64,000 nucleotides of DNA from Octopus sinensis (taxonomy: Eukaryota). Numbering within the stretch: position 1 is the stretch's first letter; each line of letters opens with the position of its first letter. Below are positions 18,641 to 61,734 of the stretch, piece after piece. The notes under the pieces are model-generated. The model saw only the letters and a program-made list of their open reading frames with translations. It did no database searches and was not told the origin of the DNA. A program made the translations under genes and the position numbers. The stretch covers positions 26,536,001-26,600,000 of the forward strand of contig NC_043010.1 in NCBI RefSeq assembly GCF_006345805.1, read 5' to 3'.

Positions 18641-18896
18641 TTTTGCAAACATCAGCTTAACTCTTTTGTTGTCATATTTCTGTCGGAATAAATGGATTTT
18701 GTTTCAGTTAATTTTGAAAATTTTGAAGAATTTAGTAAAATAACTTTGTTATTATTAAGCTGATGTTTGGAACATAAATAAACATGAGTTTTTGATGGAA
18801 GATATTTTTGAATTTAGATCACTTTAAAATGGAATATTTTTATCATAGAACCAGGAGCAGTCTCAGGTAGTTTGGTATCAAAAGGGTTGATATCAT

Positions 18897-19349
18897 TGAA
18901 GTTAGAAAATTACTATTTTTAAATCTCACAACGTGAGATATTCAGCAAAAGTACTTTCTAGTAAAGATTGTTTGCCAACATAACATGGCAGTCCTGGTTT
19001 AGGACGAATGTTGCTGTAATTTAGCCCCAGGAGACATCGTCTCCCGCTGGCTATGCAACACGATCTGTGTCCTTATATTTTTGAACAAGGGAATCTAGTA
19101 CCCCCACTCAGCCCAAAACAATATCTGTGTATCGCGATTTCTGGGTTATTTCCTTTCATCAGCACAGAAATCGCGGTACACAGATATTGTTTTGGGCTGA
19201 GTGGGGGTGCTAGATTCCCTTGTTTGAAAATATAAGGACACAGATCGTGTTGTATAGCCAGCGGGAGACGATGTCTCCTGGGGCTAAATTACAGCAACAT
19301 TCGTCCTAAACCAGGACTGCCATGTTATGTTGGCAAACAATCTTTACTA
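18897..19349 (-). mobile_element. Retrozyme-like non-coding element forming a 391-bp near-perfect palindrome
   Basis: Arms 18959-19143 and 19165-19349 with a 21-nt loop and an HHR at the apex. Homologous to the 61.2-61.7 kb unit. Confidence 0.75.
19124..19168 (-). ncRNA. Minimal type-I hammerhead ribozyme
   Basis: Minus strand: TCTGTG-CTGATGA-AAGGAAATAACCCA-GAAA-TCGCGA-TA-CACAGA. Stem I is 6 bp, stem III is palindromic, stem II is weak (GG/CC). Confidence 0.7.
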
Positions 19350-20299
19350 CAACGATGGAGTTATTTTACTAAATTCTTCATTATTTAAAAAATTACTTGA
19401 AACACAGGTAGAGTATTTTAACAGAAATATGATAACAAAAGGGTTAATAACGATGAAGTTATTTGCTAAACTTTTTCATTATTTATAAAATTAAATGAAA
19501 CAAAAGTGGTTTTTTCCCAACAGGAATATGGCAGGAAAAATACTATTCTACTAAATTCTTTCTTATAAATTGAAACAAAGGCAGTGTATTTCAACAGAAA
19601 TACAGTAACAAACGGGTTAACTCATTCGCAAGCAAACAAGATATATTAACTCGCTTACGGCCATTGAAATAGCATCATGGGAGAGCATAGCATTGAACCG
19701 TTTATCCTAGAAACCTGCTGTGAAGTGGGTAGAGATGGAAAAAAGATATGGAAGATAACTGGAATTAGCCTTAAGCACTCCAAACAAGACAAAGGTAGAA
19801 TGTATCGATTCCATACAATGACTCAGTTTTTTTCATTGGTACTGATTACAATAATATGGATTACTTCTCTCAAATAGACCGACGCCATTATTGCATCATG
19901 TGCCAGCATAAGGAGGTGGGAGGGTGAAGACAAATAGAGTAAAGAAGAAATTTCCTCCGACTTCTGAGGTACTTAGTGACCAACACTGCTGATAAATCCA
20001 TGTAGATAGTAACATTAACTCTCGTACGAGCTAACAAGGATTGTCTGTTAATATATCCTTAAGAATTTAAACATGTTTTCTTTTGTTTCAATTTAAAAAT
20101 CTTAATTGCTTTGTCAGAGGAAAGAAAACATGGCATCCATAGCTTCCTGCAGAACCTCCAAGACTGGGTGGGGGAGGTTGGGAGTGGCAGGGAAGAGATG
20201 AGGAAGTTATGACTCATGGGATATGGAATACACCTGATCTGACTGCTTGCAATTGAGAAGACTACTAAAGGTACCTTAAGGCTAGGAGGCAAGGTGGGT

Positions 20300-31382: not shown

Positions 31383-32499
31383 TCATCATCATCATCGTTT
31401 AACGTCCGTTTTCCGCGCTAGCACGGGTTGGACGGTTTGACCGGGGTCTGGGGAGCCAGGGGCTGCCCCAGGATCCTGTCTGATCTGGCAGTGTTTCTAC
31501 AGCTGGATGCCCTTCCTAACGCCAACCACTCTGCGAGTGTTGTGGGTGCTTTTTACGTGCCACCTGCACAGGTGCCAGAGGGGTCTGGCATCGGCCACGA
31601 TCGGTTGGTGCTTTTTTTATGTGCCACCGGCACAGAAGCCAGTCAAGGCGGTGCTGGCATCGGCCACGTTCGGATGGTGCTTTTTATGTGCCACCGGCAC
31701 AGAAGCCATTCGAGGCAGGGTTGGCATCGGTCACATTCGGATGGTGCTTTTTATGTGTCACCGGCACAGGTATCACAACTACTGTTTCCATTGATATTTG
31801 GTTCGATGTTTATGTACATGCTCTTGACTCAACAGGTCTCCTCAAGCACAGCGAGATGTTCCGGGATCCCACGATCAGATGGTGCTTTTTGTGTGCCACC
31901 GGCACAGAAGCCAGTCGGGGCGGTGCTGGCATCGGCCACGTTCGGATGGTGCTTTTTATGTGCCACCGGCACAGAAGCCATTCGAGGCGGGGTTGGCATC
32001 GGTCACGTTTGGATGGTGCTTTTTATGTGCCACCGGCACAGAAGCCAGTGGAGGCTGCACTGGCAACGGCCACGTTCGGATGGTGCTTTTTATGTGTCAC
32101 CGGCACAGGTATCACAACTACTGTTTCCATTGATATTTGGTTCGATGTTCATGTACATGCACTTGACTCAACAGGTCTCCTCAAGCACAGCGAGATGTTC
32201 CGGGATCCCACGATCGGTTGGTGCTTCTTATGTGCCACCGAGGCGGTGCTGGCGTCGGCCATGCTCAGATGGTGCTTTTTATGTGCCACCGGTACAGAAG
32301 CCAGTCGGGGCGGTGCTGGCATCAGCCACGTTCGGATGGTGCTTTTTATGTGCCACCGGCACAGAAGCCATTCGAGGCGGGGTTGGCATCGGTCACGTTC
32401 GGATGGTGCTTTTTATGTGCCACCGGCACAGAAGCCAGTGGAGGCTGCACTGGCAACGGCCACGTTCGGATGGTGCTTTTTATGTGTCACCGGCACAGG
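31383..32499 (-). repeat. RTE 3' end with an expanded 67-bp hairpin-repeat array (higher-order repeat)
   Basis: The motif GGTGCTTTTTATGTGCCACC recurs 13 times (31545-32472), mostly 67 bp apart. The region matches the reverse complement of 6635-7050. Confidence 0.9.
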
Positions 32500-44789: not shown

Positions 44790-46825
44790 AAATAATTGAA
44801 GTAATTTAAGTAATTTAATTAGGTGAAAGTTCTTTTTACCGGTTGCGCATTTGTTATGCTTATCAAAATATAAAAGAGAGATTAGAGTCTGTCTCTTATA
44901 TGTGAAAAAAAGAGGCTCCAGAGTTGTTTTGGATTTGCTTGGTTTCGCGCCTAAAATTTTGATTGGTCATTATGAAGGGGTCACGTGAATGTTTGAATGG
45001 AGTGGTGTTGGGGTAAGAAAAAAGGCTCCAGAGAAGTTAAAATTTGGCTAGTGTCCCGCCTAAATTTCTTATTGGCCATAATAAAGAGGTCACGTGAATG
45101 TTTAGAATTTTCGAAAATAGTGTTGTTGAAAATTCTATGGTTCAGGCTGGTCAGTAGACGTCATGTGGATATTTTAAATAGCTTTTTAGCGCGTAGTTAG
45201 GGAGTGTATTTTCCGCTTGACTGGATAAGTAAGTAAGTTCGTTAGAACAGGGAGAGCTGTATGTATGTATGTGTGTGCGCGCGTGTGGTGTTTATATGTA
45301 TGTTGGGGCGCGCGCGCGTGTATATATGTGTATGTGTGTGGGTACAATTTTCAATATTTATAGTTCTGCTGGCCTTGTGCCTGTATCGGGAAGCAACGTA
45401 TTTGTGTGAAGTCAATATTTACAGCCATTCCAAAAAATAGTGTTGGATGTTTTGCACCCGTATTCAATTATGTGTATGTGTGGAACCATATATTTGTGTG
45501 GGTCATGGTGTTAATATCTGGGTAAAGGTGTGGGTGTAGGGTGTGTGCAGGTGTAAGTGTGTTTGTTGTGGGTTCGTGTTAGAGGCATCTGTTTAGAAGT
45601 GGTCTGTATTTATTAATAAGGTGGGATTCCATGGTTATTCGCTGGGTATGAGTGGAATTGTCTTTAAATTTGTAGAGGGGAAAGATTCTAAAATTGGGAT
45701 GGAGTTGTGCGGCACAGGTATCAATATGTGCACTAAATGCTATTTTTCTATATTCCTGTATTTTTATTTGGGATCTGTGGACAGTCATGCGTTGGCGGAG
45801 GCTATTTTTTGTTTGGCCTATGTAGTGTTCATTACAGCCCGAGCAAGTTAAGACATTATACTAGGTTTTTGATGCGCATGTGAAGTTGTGTTTTACTGTG
45901 AAACGTTGTCCTTGTTTAAAAAGGAATTCCGGACCTTCTATTAGGTTGATGCATATACCACAGTTGGGTCTATTGCATTTGTTTACTGTGGGTTTAGTTG
46001 TTGTGGTTGGCAGTACTTTGGCATTTGTTAGGGTGGTTTTCAATGATTGGGTTGCCTTTTGCTCTTTATGATTTCGTGTGTTAGGAGGATTTGGTTCATT
46101 CTATGGTCCTTTTGTAATACAGGAATGTTCTGGAGGATGGTGTCAAAAGCTTCATTTGGAGGGGGTTGTGTGTAGAGATGTATGGTAGAGTATGGGGTTC
46201 GATGTTTGTAACAGGTTTAGGGCGTCTAAGTTCCTGCGTGCTGAGTTTTAGGGCGCGTTGGATCCCATTGTCAATTAGTGAGTGGGGTAATCCCTGCTTG
46301 TTATGTGCCCTTGAGTTCTTGTAGACGTAAGAGACGGGTGTTTTTTTGGAGACTATAGTGCAAATTCTCTTGGCTAAGTTGTAGGGAATGTTAATTTTAA
46401 CGTGTCTAGGGTGGCATGAATTGAAAGGGAGGTATTGCTTGGAGTCTGTGGGCTTGTAGTATATGTCTGTTTCTATTTTTTTGTTGTGAATTTTAATGAG
46501 GATGTCGAGGAAGGGAATTTGTTGAGGGCTGTATTCCATTGTGAAAATAATGTTTGTGTTGAGCCCATTTATAAGAGTGTGAAATTCGTTAAGCTTCTCG
46601 ACGGTTTCGGGCCAAAGGATGAAGCAGTCATCAAGATATCTCTTCCAGTTCTTCTCTATGTGTGTGTGGAGAGTGGTGCCAAATTGGTTAAGAACGTTAT
46701 TATAGAGGGTGATTTCCAGGTATCCCATGACTAAGTTGGCGTTAGTGGGAGCTGTTTTCGTTCCCATTGCCGTCCCTGATTTCTGTCTGTAGAATTTGTT
46801 GTTGAAGGTGAAGAAATTATTCTCT
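44790..46825 (-). mobile_element. Penelope-like element (RT + GIY-YIG), 5'-truncated, decayed
   Basis: Motifs GTAMGTKTAPTNANLVMG, WKRYLDDCF, IPFLDI, YYKPTD, Cys motif CNRPNCGIC, FTCAS and YIGQT. A degenerate HHR lies at 44833-44868. Confidence 0.9.
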
Positions 46826-47135
46826 AAGATTGAGCTTATGATCGTGAGGTTGTGGGTTCAATTCCTGGACAGGGCTGCGTGTTGTGTTCTTGAGCAAGAC
46901 ACTTTATTTCACATTGCTCCAGTTCACTCAGCTGTAGAAATGAATTGCAATGTCACTGGTACCAAGCTGTATCGACCTTTGCCTTTCCCTTGGATAACGT
47001 CGGTGGTGTGGAGAGGGGAGGCTGATATGCATGGGTGACTGCTGGCCTTCCATAAACAACCTTGCCCAGACTTGTGCCTCGGATGGTAACTTTCTAGGTG
47101 CAATCCCATGGTCATACATGACCAAAGGGGGTCTC
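46826..47135 (+). mobile_element. SINE family C (related copy at ~22085-22350)
   Basis: B-box-like GGTTCAATTCC followed by TGTGTTCTTGAGCAAGACACTT..CACATTGCTCC, shared by both copies. Confidence 0.65.
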
Positions 47136-50835: not shown

Positions 50836-51295
50836 CATCATCATCATCATCATTTAACGTCCGCATTCCATACTAGCATGGGTTGGACAGTTTGACTGAG
50901 GACTGGCGAACCAGATGGCTGCACCAGGCTTCAATCTTGATCTAGCATTCTACAGCTGGATGCCCTTCCTGATGCCAACCACTCCGGAAGTGTAGTGGGT
51001 GCTTTCATGTGCCACCGGCACGAGGGCCAGTCAGGTGATACTGGTAACGGCCACGCTCAAATGGTGTTTTTTACATGCCACCTGCACAGGAGCCAGTCCA
51101 GTAGCACTGGCAACGACCTCGCTCAAATGTTTTTTTTTTCACGTGCCACTGGCACAAGTGCCAGTAAGGTGATGCTGGTGACGATCATGCTTGAATGGTG
51201 CTTATTATGTGCCACTGGCACGAAGCCAGTTTGCTGCACTGGCAACGATCACACTCGGATGGTGCTCTTAGCGCTCCACTAGCATGGATGCCAAC
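50835..51295 (-). mobile_element. RTE-related 3' end (different subfamily) with hairpin repeats
   Basis: (CAT)n tail, CAGCTGGATGCCCTTCCT motif and repeated GTGCCAC..GCAC units. Confidence 0.75.
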
Positions 51296-52713: not shown

Positions 52714-55700
52714 CCATCTTACCCATACTCCGCACCACATCTTACCGCCTTATGTGTGCCACCATTCGCTCCAATCTCTCTAAACTACATACCATCGACT
52801 GCCTCCTCCCTCCTGCTTTTTCCACATTTTTCTCCTCTCTGCCGCCTTTCCATGCTCCAAACACGCTATGCTTCATTATCCATTTGAATTACCTCTTCCA
52901 TCAATTTCTTTCCAATACCAAACTTCGTAAACTCCAATCACTCCTCTATTCCACCACACCCGACGCCACTACCCTTCTCCCCTCCTAACCCCACTGTCCC
53001 TCCCAACAACCCCCACAAACCTCCCCAATCCCTCCCCCTCAGACCTCCACCAGCCCTACCACCCCTCCTACTCCTACTCCCATTCCATCCACCCCTCGTA
53101 CTTCTATTCCACCCACCCCTTCTCCACTTCCGTCTGTTGTTACCATTCCCCCTGATCTTCCCCTCTCTGCGGCGGAACACTCTGTCCTTGGTAGGGGTCT
53201 GCGTTTCATCCCCCTCACTCCATCCTGTAAGGAATTCCAGACGCGAGCTGATGTCCACAGCTTTGTGCACTGCGTCCGGTCGGGTGCATTTTTCCACGAC
53301 TCACCACCCGCATCCAACGATGAGGACTGCTTCACTGACCTGGGCCGCCGACCATCCCCGTGGACGCCTGCCCCCGGCCAGTTCCTAGCGGTTGATCTTT
53401 TCGCGGGCGCCTGTCAGCGTGCATTGGAGCAGTTCAACTTCTCCAGGCGCCTCAACATCTCCCCGGCCGAGCCCTTGGCTCTTCGTTCCCTCCAACGGCG
53501 CGCTGACATTATCATCAAACTGGCTGACAAGAGTGGAGCTGTGGTGGTGTGGCGCGTGGACCTCTACAGGGCCGAGGCTCTCCGCCAACTCAATGACACC
53601 TCCTTCTACTCCCCTCTGTCCTCTAACCCCACACGTAGCTACCAACAGACGGTATCCTCTACTGTCCACGACCTCATCTCGTCCTCCCATCTCCCCCACA
53701 CCGCATCCAACCTAATTGTGCAAACCCCACGCACCCCCACCATTTACTTCCTCCCCCAAATCCACAAACCCAACAACCCTGGCCGCCCCATTGTCTCCGC
53801 CTGCAACTGCCCACGGAGCTCATCTCAAAATATCTCAACCGTGTCCTTGCCCCCCTAGTGGCGTCTCTACCCTCCAACATCCACGACACCAACCATGCTC
53901 TCCGGCTGTTCAACTCTTTCTCCTTTCCTCCCGGCTCCTCCAAAATACTTTTTACAATGAACATCCAGAGTCTCTATACCATCATCCCTCACCACGAAGG
54001 ACTGCGGGCACTTCAACACTTTCTCGACCTCCGCTTCAACCCCGAACCCGACACCTCCACACTCATTCGTCTGGCTGAACTTGTCCTTTCTCTTAACTGC
54101 TTCTCGTTCGCGGGCGAGTTCTACCAACAGGTCTCGGGAGTGGCCATGGGAATGCGAATGGGCCCCAACTATGCGAACCTGTTCGTTGGCTATGTTGAGG
54201 CCCAAATATTCTCTAATTTCACTGGTCCCACTCCTGAACTATATGGTCGTTACACTGACGACATTATCGGTGCCACCTCACTCTGCCGTGAACATCTAGA
54301 TTCCTTCCTCTCTTTCGTTCAATCTTTCCATCCAGCCCTCCACTTCACCTCCACTATCTCCAACACCTCTGTCTCCTTCCTCGATATTTCGGTCAGCATT
54401 CATCACTCCACTCTTACCACCTCCATTCACTACAAACACACAGACTCACACTCATACCTAAACTTCTCTTCCTCCCACCCAAAACACACCAAGCTTTCCA
54501 TCCCCTATTCCCAATTCCTCCGTCTACATAGGCTCTGTAGTGACGACCATGACTTTGAGACTCAGCCTCTACGCATGGCTCGCCACTTCATCCTACGTGG
54601 ATACCCCCTCACCATTATCCACACCGCCCTTGCTAGAGCACGTTACGTAGACCGTGCATCTGCTCTCTCCCCCCGAACCTGCCCTGTAGTCTCCCGCCTC
54701 TCTTTTCCCCTCACTTACCACCCCACGACCCTACCTCTCCAACGCACCATTCTTTGAGCTTTCCGTCATCTCCAGTCCGACCCGTCCACTTCACACCTCT
54801 TCCCTAACCGACCCCCTCCCCTCCTTCAAACGAGCCCATAACCTACGAGACCTTTTGGTCCACAGCTCCTTCCCTGACCCTACCTTCCAACCTGGCTCGT
54901 TCCTCTGCTCCCACCCACGTTGCCACACTTGCCCTTACCTCTCCAACACCACCCTCCTCACTGGCACCCATCATCGACCCTATCGCATCATCAACTCCTT
55001 CACCTGCACCTCCAGTAATATCATCTACTGCATCTCTTGCTCTCTCTGCCATTCCCTGTACATCGGACAAACGGGACGCCGCTTGGCTGACCGGTTCGCG
55101 GAACACCTCCAAGACATCCGCCTTGCCAACGACACACCGGTCTCACGCCATTTCCACTCCATCGGTCACTCCTTGCAAGATCTGTCTGTGTTCGGTTTGT
55201 CCTTGCGCAGAGGCCATCCGGATTCCCGTTTGCGCCTTCCCTTCTTCCCTCCTCTTTCTTCTTCCTCTTCTCTCTTTCTCTGTGCTCCCTCACTCCCCTT
55301 CTCTCTATCCCCCTATCCTCCCCTCCTCCTCTCCCCTCCTTTCCATCCCCCTCCTTTTCTCCTCTCCTTCCTTCTCCCCTTCCTTCCTCCTCCTCCCTCC
55401 TCCCCCTCTTCTCTTTTCTTCTCCCCCCTCTCACCCTCCCTCTCATCTCATCTCACCCTCAACCCCTCCTTCTTTCCTCCCCCTCACTCTCACCTTTCCT
55501 CTTCTCCCTCCTCCCTCCTCTCTCCTTCTTCCCCCTCTTCCCCTCTCATCCCCTCCCACCCTCCCCTCCCCTCATCTCCCCTCCCCTCCCTCATCACCCC
55601 CTCCTCTCCTTCCTCCGCCTCCCCCTCTCATCCCTCCTCCTCCACTCTCTCTCTCACTCTCCCCCTCATCTCCCCTCTCTACACTACACCATACGACATT

Positions 55701-57694: not shown

Positions 57695-59496
57695 GGTCAT
57701 AGCCCAACTAATTAGAGAGAGAGTTAGTTTAGATGAGATGCAGTTTGGGTTCGTGCCAGGGAAAAGTACCACTGATGCTATATTCCTGGTAAGATAGCTG
57801 CAGGAGAAATGCCTAGCCAAAAATAAGCCCCTGTACCTGGCTTTTGTTGACATGGAGAAAGCCTTCGACAGGGTCCCCCGATCACTTATATGGTGGTCAA
57901 TGAGGAAACTAGAGGTAGATGAATGGTTAGTGAGAGCTGTGCGAGCCATGTACAGGGACGCTGCTAGTAAGGTGAGAGTTGGCAACGAGTACGGTGAAGA
58001 ATTCCGGGTAGAGGTAGGGGTCCACCAAGGTTCAGTCCTCAGCCCCCTCTTATTTATCATAGTCCTCCAGGCAATAACGGAGGAATTCAAGACAGGATAC
58101 CCCTGGGAGCTCCTCTATGCTGATGACCTTGCTCTAATTGCTGAGTCACTATCAGAACTGGAGAAGTTTCAGGTGTAGAAGCAAGGATTAGAATCGAAGG
58201 GCCTTTAGAGTCAACCTAGCTAAAACCAAAGTCCCAATAAGTAGGAAGGTAGACAAATCACAAACGCCTTCAGGTAGATGGCCCTGCTCAATCTGTAGAA
58301 AAGGCATAGGTAGAAACTCTATAAGATGCAACAAGTGTCAGCTATGGACACATAAGAGGTGCAGCAATGTCAAAGGAAGGCTAACTAGGAAAATAGTTTT
58401 TGTATGTGGCAGATGCTCAGGAGCAATAAACACTGAAAATGCGCAGAGACCAACTTCCGCCACATTCCAGGGAGAAAAACTAGAAATAGTTGATAGCTTC
58501 CATTACCTAGGTGACCAAGTCAGTAGCGGGGGTGGGTGTGCTGAAAGTGTAACTGCTAGAGTAAGAATAGCTTGGGCAAAGTTCAGAGAGCTCTCACCTC
58601 TGCTGGTGACAAAGGACCTCTCTCTCAGAGTAAAAGGCAGACTGTAGGACGCACGTGTACAAACAGCCATGCTACATGGTAGTGAAACATGGGCCATGAC
58701 TGCTGAAGATATGCGTAAGCTCACAAAAAATGAAGCCATGATGCTCCGATGGATGTGTAATGTCAGTGTTCATACTCGACAGTGTAAGTACCTTGAGAGA
58801 AAAGTTGGACCTAAGAAGAATCAGTTGTGGTGTGCAAGAGAAACGTTTGCGCTGGTGAGAATGGATGAAGATAGTTGTGTGAAAAAGTGCCACACCCTAG
58901 CGGTTGAGGGAACCTGTGGAAGAGGTAGACCCAGGAAAACTGGGACGAGGTGGTGAAGCACGACCTTCGAACCTTAGGTCTCACCGAGGAAATGACTAGA
59001 GACCGAGACCTATCGAAGTATGCTGTGCGTGAGAAGACCTGGCAAGACAAGTGAGACCATAACCCGTGGCCTCTACCTGGGATGTAACCAGTCCACTTAT
59101 GCATACCTTTCCTTCTTGAGACTCAAAACTCTACATGTGAAGACATGTTAACGCAAGTGAGAATCAGAATCAAAATCAAAATCAAAATCGATCAACATCA
59201 ATGGAAATTGTAACTGTGATACCAGTGCCGGTTGCATGTAAGCAAACCATCCGAATGTAGCCGTTGCCAGACTCACCTGGCCCCCGTGCCGGTGGCATGT
59301 AAAAAGCACCCTCCGATCGTGGCCATTGCCAGACTCGCCTGGCCCCCGTGCTGGTGGCATGTAAAAAGCACCATCCGATCGTGGCCGTTTGCCAGCCTCG
59401 TCTGGCACCTGTGCTGGTGGCACAGACCCCAGTCGAACTGTCCAACCCATGCTAGCATGGAAAGCGGACGTTAAACGATGATGATAATGATGATGA

Positions 59497-60955: not shown

Positions 60956-61130
60956 TACATGGTTGTATATGTATGTATGTGTGTCTGTGTTTGTCCCTCA
61001 CAACATCCCTTGACAATTGATGCTGGTGTGTTTACATCCCCATAACTTAGCGTTTCGGCAAAAGAAACTGATAGAATAAGTAGTAGGCTTACATAGAATA
61101 AATAAAAATATATATATATATACATATATA

Positions 61131-61731
61131 TAGAATTGTTGTATACTGTCAATTTAACGTGACAGTAGGGGATTACACCACCGCTGTTTAGCCCTAGGAA
61201 GCATCGACGCTTCCTGTCGGAAATGTGTCGAAGCCGACAGGAAGCGTCGATGCTTCCTAGGCTAAACAGCGGTGGTGTAATCCCCTACTGTCACGTTAAA
61301 TTGACAGTATACAATCATTCTATCGCCCCACCACCGTACATATCTCTATGAGATATTTAGAAATTTAATATTTCTGATTTTGGTGATCAGTGAATAAACT
61401 TCACTGAAAATTAGATATATATATTTACGAAGTCGAGACAGATATCTGCACCTAGCAGGCTTCTGCTACTCTAGACCAATGATGGGCAAAGATCCTGAAA
61501 CATGCGTGTCTGTAGATGCAGGCCTAGCTGTTGGGGATATTTGTCTCCCCTTCGTAAATATATAAGGACACAGGAAATGTGTCGAAGCCGACAGGAAGTG
61601 TCGATGCTTCCTAGGGCTAAACAGCGGTGGTGTAATCCCCTACTGTCACGTTAAATTGACAGTATACAACTATTCTATTGCCCCACCACCGTACATATCT
61701 CTATGAGATATTTAGAAATTTAATATCTCTG

Positions 61732-61734
<3 letters not shown>
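61131..61734 (+). mobile_element. Retrozyme-like element: 354-bp highly structured monomer, ~1.45 tandem copies plus a 5' inverted segment
   Basis: Direct repeats start at 61219 and 61573. 61131-61220 inverts 61234-61322. A degenerate HHR lies at 61470-61516, and the element is flanked by (TA)n. Confidence 0.78.

Follow-up and report, generated by a model that had tools for sequence, protein, structure and literature searches.

Two elements in a 64,000-nt stretch of the Octopus sinensis genome (the window), at 19 kb and 61 kb, are copies of non-LTR retrozymes, a described class, and share a multi-hairpin RNA domain, P1-P7, that lies downstream of the hammerhead ribozyme and covaries across four deep lineages. 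Since this fold surrounds both of the fixed sites at which inserted copies end, it is likely to serve a reverse transcriptase (RT) as handle and copying start. Given that the signature left by the two sites matches the tail of Penelope-like elements (PLEs) point by point, we read the domain as a binding and priming platform for a PLE reverse transcriptase-endonuclease, a reading to which we assign a probability of about two in three.

Identity of the elements and their families

Head-to-tail units carrying one type I hammerhead each identify the two elements as non-LTR retrozymes by the published definition, as given in the available parts of its sources (PMC7229834; bioRxiv 10.64898/2026.07.22.740005). 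The superfamily consists of non-coding tandem units of 350-364 nt (~355), each with a single type I hammerhead; 64 of 120 sense runs exceed 1.05 units, the longest reaching 3.5. The 19-kb copy represents family A and the 61-kb copy family B, which are ~53% identical across the unit, and five additional families in the same genome bring the number to seven: C was the neighbour of one match, D and E came from the hammerhead pattern, and F and G from the covariance model described below. A first-look screen of the genome returned 2,777 candidates for family A, 3,072 for family B and, with these two included, more than 2,000 for each of five families, all of these counts being lower bounds. The common P1-P2 motif has 5,713 exact genome matches as against one for the reversed control, and further sub-families are visible in a sample of 30 of these matches. 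Family F is young, its copies being 97-98% identical. Members of the superfamily are dispersed at high copy number, lack LTRs and, where a target duplication is present, show one of more than 4 bp. Family A was found in sequencing runs of five organisms; pattern searches of metagenomes gave 0 and then 17 matches and a viral collection 3, and 0/20 scored with the covariance model.

Other classes were considered and rejected. A tRNA-derived SINE or Pol III unit does not fit, as A and B boxes are not shared in a simple pattern scan of five units and the ends have no simple-repeat or LINE-derived tail; nor does a MITE, as fixed terminal inverted repeats and a target duplication of fixed length are both absent. 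Rfam gave no match at gathering in the window and only sub-threshold miRNA-hairpin matches in four loci, so that the fold that a preliminary description of this DNA could not recognise does lack an Rfam match at that threshold; its carrier belongs to a described class. SECIS elements are known from Naiad PLEs; a SECIS role was set aside, the retrozymes being without an ORF.

Derivatives and neighbours of the superfamily were also observed. A 158-nt deleted derivative of family A keeps P1-P5, has lost the ribozyme and ends at S2; seven tandem copies of it lie upstream of one full unit, and a similar short unit occurs at two loci of family C. The hammerhead pattern has 862 matches in the genome, as against 50 in the control, and these include at least two other hammerhead families that lack the P1-P7 domain.

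The two window copies and their ribozymes

The features of both copies are collected in Table 1. On re-reading the sequence, the motifs of the preliminary description were found where it had placed them, and its start at 18897 lies within 5 nt of the fixed end of the 19-kb insertion at ~18902. The shared hairpin domain that it proposed is real, with five corrections overall. The pair GACAC/GTGTT versus GACAC/GTGTC is not compensatory, being a one-sided C>T in some A copies. The AGCC stem reads GGAAGT in the main 61-kb copy, GGAAGC holding for the upstream partial repeat of that copy. The string GCTG..TGGGG..CCCTT is present, but it is actually the 3' arm of the long stem beneath the ribozyme. 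The list of hairpins had overlooked the outer stem P3 as well as hairpins P4 and P7; P4 is deleted in family B and also lost in family C.

Table 1. Positions of the retrozyme features in the two window copies
Feature	Position	Strand	Detail
19-kb copy, whole family-A insertion	18902..19352	-	451 nt: inverted 5' arm plus 0.76 unit in sense
19-kb copy, inverted arm	19165..19352	+	188 nt, 97% complementary to 18956-19143; outer end 19352 at site S2
19-kb copy, type I hammerhead	19124..19168	-	core 19162-19156; predicted cut between 19130 and 19129; palindromic stem III
19-kb copy, P0	19074..19121	-	3' arm of long basal stem; 5' arm missing from this copy
19-kb copy, hairpin P1	19057..19071	-	sequence nearly invariant across all seven families
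19-kb copy, hairpin P2	19023..19052	-	two-part; double-sided changes in 5/10 pairs
19-kb copy, outer stem P3	18943..19017	-	19017-19010 with 18950-18943; closes multi-way junction enclosing P4 (19004-18992), P5 (18990-18973) and S2 linker; double-sided changes in 6/8 pairs
19-kb copy, S2 linker	18955..18972	-	A/C-rich, single-stranded; fixed end site S2
19-kb copy, hairpins P6 and P7	18902..18939	-	P6 18939-18923; P7 18919-18906; fixed end site S1 (~18902)
61-kb copy, whole family-B insertion	61130..61732	+	~600 nt: 91-nt inverted arm plus 1.43 units, inside (TA)n tract
61-kb copy, inverted arm	61130..61220	-	91 nt; outer end 61130 at site S2
61-kb copy, partial upstream unit	61219..61378	+	direct repeat of 61573-61733, period 354-355
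61-kb copy, P8 and P0	61387..61564	+	hairpin P8 61387-61407; long stem P0 61418-61564, bearing hammerhead
61-kb copy, hammerhead	61469-61517	+	predicted cut after 61510
61-kb copy, conserved domain	61567..61732	+	P1 61567-61583; P2 61586-61618; P3 61624-61692; P5 61644-61661; S2 linker 61665-61678; P6 61695-61711; P7 and S1 61714-61732

The element at 19 kb forms an inverted repeat of 188 bp whose loop contains the hammerhead core; stem II of the hammerhead is weakened and the motif is buried by the long repeat, both of which probably affect its activity. The 61-kb hammerhead carries a core substitution absent from the other listed B copies. Both copies look damaged at the ribozyme and are therefore probably fossils. 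The 19-kb element is hosted by an AT-rich repeat (window 18657-18904 and 19351-19620) with ~98-nt subunits and inverted ends.

The hammerhead core and stems I-III could be read throughout families A-G. All seven retain the core, family G in a form with U3-A8 swapped and families B and C with U4C; a mismatch is present at the base of stem II in A, B and D. Stem I covaries and stem III stays palindromic; in the two window copies stem III had already been noted to change in sequence while remaining palindromic or nearly so. These variant cores gave no Rfam match at gathering, and conservation of the core is the sole argument for the predicted self-cleavage. The distance from the cut to S1 is constant at 217-233 nt.

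An RNA fold under selection

The unit folds as P0, the stem with the ribozyme, then P1 and P2, then a junction that P3 closes around P4 and P5, and lastly P6, P7 and P8. Both window copies fold better than shuffled sequence (z of -4.5 and -3.5), and folding is strong throughout the unit, also in P0 and P8, which lie at a distance from the ends (circular-fold z between -5.0 and -9.2 for the 9 monomers tested out of 31). With P1 excluded, 37 pairs could be aligned between the two window copies: 18 are identical, eight have changed on both sides and are still paired, two have changed on one side and are still paired, six are unpaired in at least one copy and three fall on gaps. Two copies by themselves cannot demonstrate covariation, and a structure-blind MAFFT alignment was made of 18 of the more than 100 domain copies, picked to balance the families.

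On this alignment RNAalifold predicted 24 pairs, 13 of them with double changes; with P4, P5 and P7 added by hand, double-sided changes occur in 17 of 37 pairs, and double-sided cells number 74 as against 26.6 in shuffles (0/500). Under a null that preserves lineages, 20 double changes were observed where 5.2-5.6 were expected (0/5000), a result that rests on four deep lineages and in which three of the seven counted helices were taken from the same alignment. The covariation first proposed from two copies is thus borne out in a larger alignment, at the level of those lineages; within families B-E it does not rise above shuffles, 3 of 47 pairs changing on both sides. P3 is the strongest covarying helix, P7 is paired only 66% across families, and P1 cannot be scored for covariation because its 3' arm was misaligned by MAFFT and the hairpin hardly varies. 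Over the four lineages 57 columns are invariant.

A covariance model trained on families B-E only recovered 12/12 family-A loci at 60.7-84.6 bits, as against 33.1-45.6 bits without structure, a gain of 25-43 bits between two score types that are not strictly comparable, and the same model found families F and G unprompted. At the lineage level 9 G-U pairs stand against 2 A-C pairs, an excess that points to RNA of the ribozyme strand. In reads from a related organism one P4 pair is variable at both of its positions, T>C and A>G being carried at similar frequency, unphased, by between roughly a quarter and a third of the reads. These results support selection on the RNA fold across four deep lineages, as the preliminary description had suggested.

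Fixed ends of the inserted copies

In the sense direction inserted copies end at two sites, S1, in or just after P7 (window ~18902 and 61730), and S2, in the A/C-rich linker after P5. The sites lie about 45-60 nt apart, both are bracketed by the fold, and the interval from S2 to S1 constitutes the tail. After removal of 8 duplicate loci, 121 non-redundant insertions of families A, B, C, F and G were scored: 86 have their end at S1 and 29 have it at S2 (115/121 at a site), which leaves 6 with an end elsewhere. The division between the sites is biased by the DNA queries, since those for A, B and F favoured copies reaching S1 and those for C and G favoured S2. A position-picked sample of 30 gave 13 ends at S1, 11 at S2 and 6 at other places or running on, two of the S1 calls being doubtful and five pairs of rows coming from shared insertions. 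The outer ends of inverted 5' arms also lie at S1 or S2 and, where both ends of a head-to-head double are at a site, 48 of 50 combine S1 with S2 (Fisher p 1.4e-9), as both window elements do.

Target duplications are indicated by flanks that share 8-14 nt in 20 of 31 non-microsatellite S1/S2 doubles, where 1.5 were expected, and a (TA)n flank accompanies 52 of the 121 insertions. Truncation at the 5' end, partial tandems, an inverted 5' copy, AT-rich or microsatellite targets and the lack of a poly(A) tail were all found, and 5' ends and target duplications vary between insertions. Relative to the hammerhead cut, 28 of 78 inverted arms pass through, 4 stop there and 46 end short. Read-through of the cut, coupled with runs longer than one unit, argues for a circle or uncut multimer, rather than a cut monomer, as the template. 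For B, C, F and G the own arm of an insertion is a nearer match than the median of the other copies in 39 of 42 cases, but for A in only 6 of 13, which is suggestive of both arms having come from the same template.

A probable link to PLEs and a proposed mechanism

The genome contains young, intact PLE ORFs of 781 aa (copies 98.8-99.6% identical) and 775 aa, with RVT_1 and GIY-YIG matches, which we take from their cysteine linker to belong to the Neptune clade. The 781-aa family itself has two 3' ends ~35-40 nt apart (13 short and 7 tailed, n=20). A likeness between its tail and family F was considered and dropped, being not above shuffles (77/1000). The 3' UTR of this PLE carries words resembling CCAAT and CRE motifs, both repeated, and one resembling a TATA motif upstream of a U3-A8 hammerhead; there is a small palindromic hairpin within the tail and an ATG ~24 nt beyond it.

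No autonomous PLE with the fold was found among 68 sources, in which the covariance model matched retrozyme copies alone, and a partner search over GIY-YIG loci, a second endonuclease type and other hammerhead families gave no PLE 3' end with the fold. Shared pLTR sequence or structure was not found in a comparison that covered some of the genome's PLE families, local alignment to three hammerhead-bearing 3' ends beating shuffles in 1 of 21 cases, an AT-rich match. Among 30 position-picked motif matches, any connection to a PLE ORF ran across a microsatellite. Some retrozymes of families F, C and G have an autonomous PLE copy only a few kb away, and in two cases nothing but a microsatellite intervenes; this proximity probably reflects common targets and not linkage. 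Broken PLE fragments (RT, cysteine linker, GIY-YIG) are present in the window at 45588-46848 (-), the protein of which is 55-59% identical to the intact 781-aa family, and at 53175-55172 (+); the window also contains tandem arrays of a 62-67-nt unit, a common dispersed repeat, at 31545-32498, 51003-51230 and 59225-59422.

In the mechanism that we propose, a tandem copy would be transcribed, and its RNA would remain an uncut multimer or, after cleavage by paired hammerheads, be circularised. A PLE protein would then bind the P1-P7 fold and nick AT-rich or (TA)n DNA with a stagger of ~8-14 bp, consistent with the target duplications observed. Priming would take place internally, at S1 or S2, and copying would proceed 5'-wards through the ribozyme into the next unit, a course suggested by the observed ends, the read-through and the runs of more than one unit. 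Priming of both DNA ends, one at S1 and the other at S2, would yield a head-to-head hairpin like those at 19 kb and 61 kb, in agreement with the observed pairing, and a protein dimer may act on both DNA ends. A more specific version, which we put forward tentatively, is that P1-P7 might be a dedicated scaffold for a dimeric, telomerase-related PLE RT, the two sites ~50 nt apart allowing one complex to prime both strands of the staggered nick. If so, no RNA recognition element of a PLE protein would have been defined structurally before this one, the genome would give direct evidence of animal retrozymes moving by PLE machinery, and the fold would be a portable tag with which to insert circular RNA cargo.

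Circles or linear transcripts

Raw RNA reads from the related organism were aligned to family A alone. Loose ends pile up at the S1/S2 places (150-189 and 209-249 reads per run), the reads fall on both strands with a skew to the 3' part, 66-76% run on into unrelated sequence, and read ends do not pile up at the hammerhead cut, all of which is expected of dispersed genomic copies. The 21-26 unit-junction reads per run are compatible with tandem DNA or with circles, library selection and strandedness being unspecified; no sign of abundant circles was seen in these RNA-seq data, where poly(A) selection, if used, would hide them. In about a third of the reads the core and the cut site of the hammerhead show changes that look linked, which may mark a sub-family that has lost its ribozyme.

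It is possible, if doubtful, that the fold has the same role in linear mini-PLEs copied from uncut tandem transcripts, with no circles and the hammerhead secondary. Such a reading would accommodate the absence of reads ending at the cut and the low unit-junction depth in the related organism, the finding that hammerhead cleavage is dispensable for a PLE in vitro (PMC11167929), the 8 of 9 Xenopus retrozyme dimers left uncleaved according to the available text of bioRxiv 10.64898/2026.07.22.740005, and the U4C cores and stem II mismatches noted above. It sits less well with a core kept in seven families, in one of which the U3-A8 swap is a variant described in the available part of PMC4209133, with a stem I that covaries and a stem III that remains palindromic, and with a unit length held at 350-364 nt; moreover, the libraries, of unspecified strandedness and possibly poly(A)-selected, would hide circles.

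What the fold is selected for

We consider it unlikely that the fold has been selected for survival of the RNA, whether as a compact circle or through nuclease resistance, binding of a host ligase or protein, or control of the ribozyme, with the RT priming the two most accessible AU-rich single strands. The entire unit is indeed strongly folded, P0 and P8 included, published retrozymes are self-paired circles as far as the available part of PMC7229834 extends, the fold is missing from the PLE 3' ends examined, and single-stranded AU-rich linkers could be primed just through their accessibility. General stability, however, would not fix the order of the helices, the invariant loop letters (57 columns) or the 217-233-nt distance from cut to S1, and accessibility alone does not explain the strict pairing of S1 with S2.

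Of the three roles offered by the preliminary description, recognition by an RT is favoured by the two fixed ends within the fold, and the other two fare poorly. Ligation is disfavoured because the domain begins ~60 nt from the cut and because animal retrozymes are closed by RtcB in vitro, as reported in the portion of PMC7229834 available. That the conserved block is a DNA promoter driving the next unit, through a TATA box with downstream elements or through Pol III boxes, is highly improbable: TATAAG precedes P1 in families A-E and a B-box-like word occurs in B and C, but TATAAG is replaced in F and G, the letters TATA form the base of stem P0, neither an A nor a B box is common to the units, sense-strand runs of at least four T occur in each of five units checked, and the paired double changes and G-U bias point to RNA. 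Least probable of all, and already largely refuted, is that the hairpins express a DNA-level symmetry (MITE-like palindromes or gene conversion between arms), since, long as the inverted repeats formed by genomic copies are, fixed terminal inverted repeats are lacking, 5' ends and target duplications vary, G-U exceeds A-C by 9 to 2, and the arms are not homogenised, the own arm being the best match in only 18 of 55.

Comparison with known systems

The copying route of animal retrozymes is an open question, a PLE helper having been proposed from co-occurrence and pLTR kinship, and the choice by PLEs of their RNA and of two internal start sites is a second question touched by this superfamily. 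It offers the PLE tail signature on a retrozyme together with a 175-nt covarying fold on which the start sites are mapped and, since the same genome holds young families along with intact candidate enzymes, both questions can be put to the test in vitro. The retrozyme class is already known, and the tail mechanism is already known for PLEs; in the literature searched, some of it available in part, we found no cephalopod retrozymes, covarying non-ribozyme domain or retrozyme tail signature, and the supplement of PMC7229834 may list more species.

Metazoan non-LTR retrozymes are described, in the available part of the report, as non-coding tandem units of 150-450 bp in thousands of copies, with mussel units of 350-390 nt (Cervera and de la Pena 2020, PMC7229834). 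The octopus elements resemble them in having one type I hammerhead per unit, no LTR, PBS or PPT, target duplications of >4 bp and a self-paired structure. In contrast, a cephalopod family, a covarying non-ribozyme domain and fixed insertion ends are not described in that part of the report, and circles were demonstrated there, whereas the octopus elements are known here from DNA and from reads of a related organism. Animal retrozymes have been proposed to be non-autonomous PLE derivatives (Li, Clavereau and Pollet 2026, bioRxiv 10.64898/2026.07.22.740005), and our account has the class and the proposed mobiliser in common with that study. Its evidence, so far as its available text goes, is co-occurrence and pLTR kinship, mainly in vertebrates, whereas ours is the insertion signature, with no pLTR kinship found. 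Like the PLE-type hammerheads in the accessible portion of an earlier report (Cervera and de la Pena 2014, PMC4209133), those of the octopus have a short palindromic helix III suited to dimers and U3-A8 covariation, but they differ in a long basal stem, a stem II of 3-4 bp and U4C in families B and C.

The closest likeness in the tail is to PAc Poseidon, a PLE whose protein was shown in vitro to nick AT-rich DNA on either strand and to begin copying from two internal sites (Frangieh et al. 2024, PMC11167929). These sites lie at an AC-rich stem-loop downstream of the hammerhead, the interval between them is the genomic tail, and hammerhead cleavage is not needed (PMC11167929); in tandem or inverted PLE insertions the tail is often at one end only, according to the part available of a second report (Craig et al. 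2021, PMC8557442). As far as these two sources could be compared, the octopus retrozymes share with PAc Poseidon two adjacent ends downstream of the hammerhead, an AC-rich start region, AT-rich targets, inverted 5' copies, a one-ended tail and no RNA ends at the hammerhead cut. PAc Poseidon is autonomous, with a tail of 30-40 bp and a binding motif that, in what was available of the same reports, is only bracketed by truncation, whereas the octopus retrozymes are non-coding, have a tail of ~45-60 nt, and carry their two sites on a conserved multi-helix fold.
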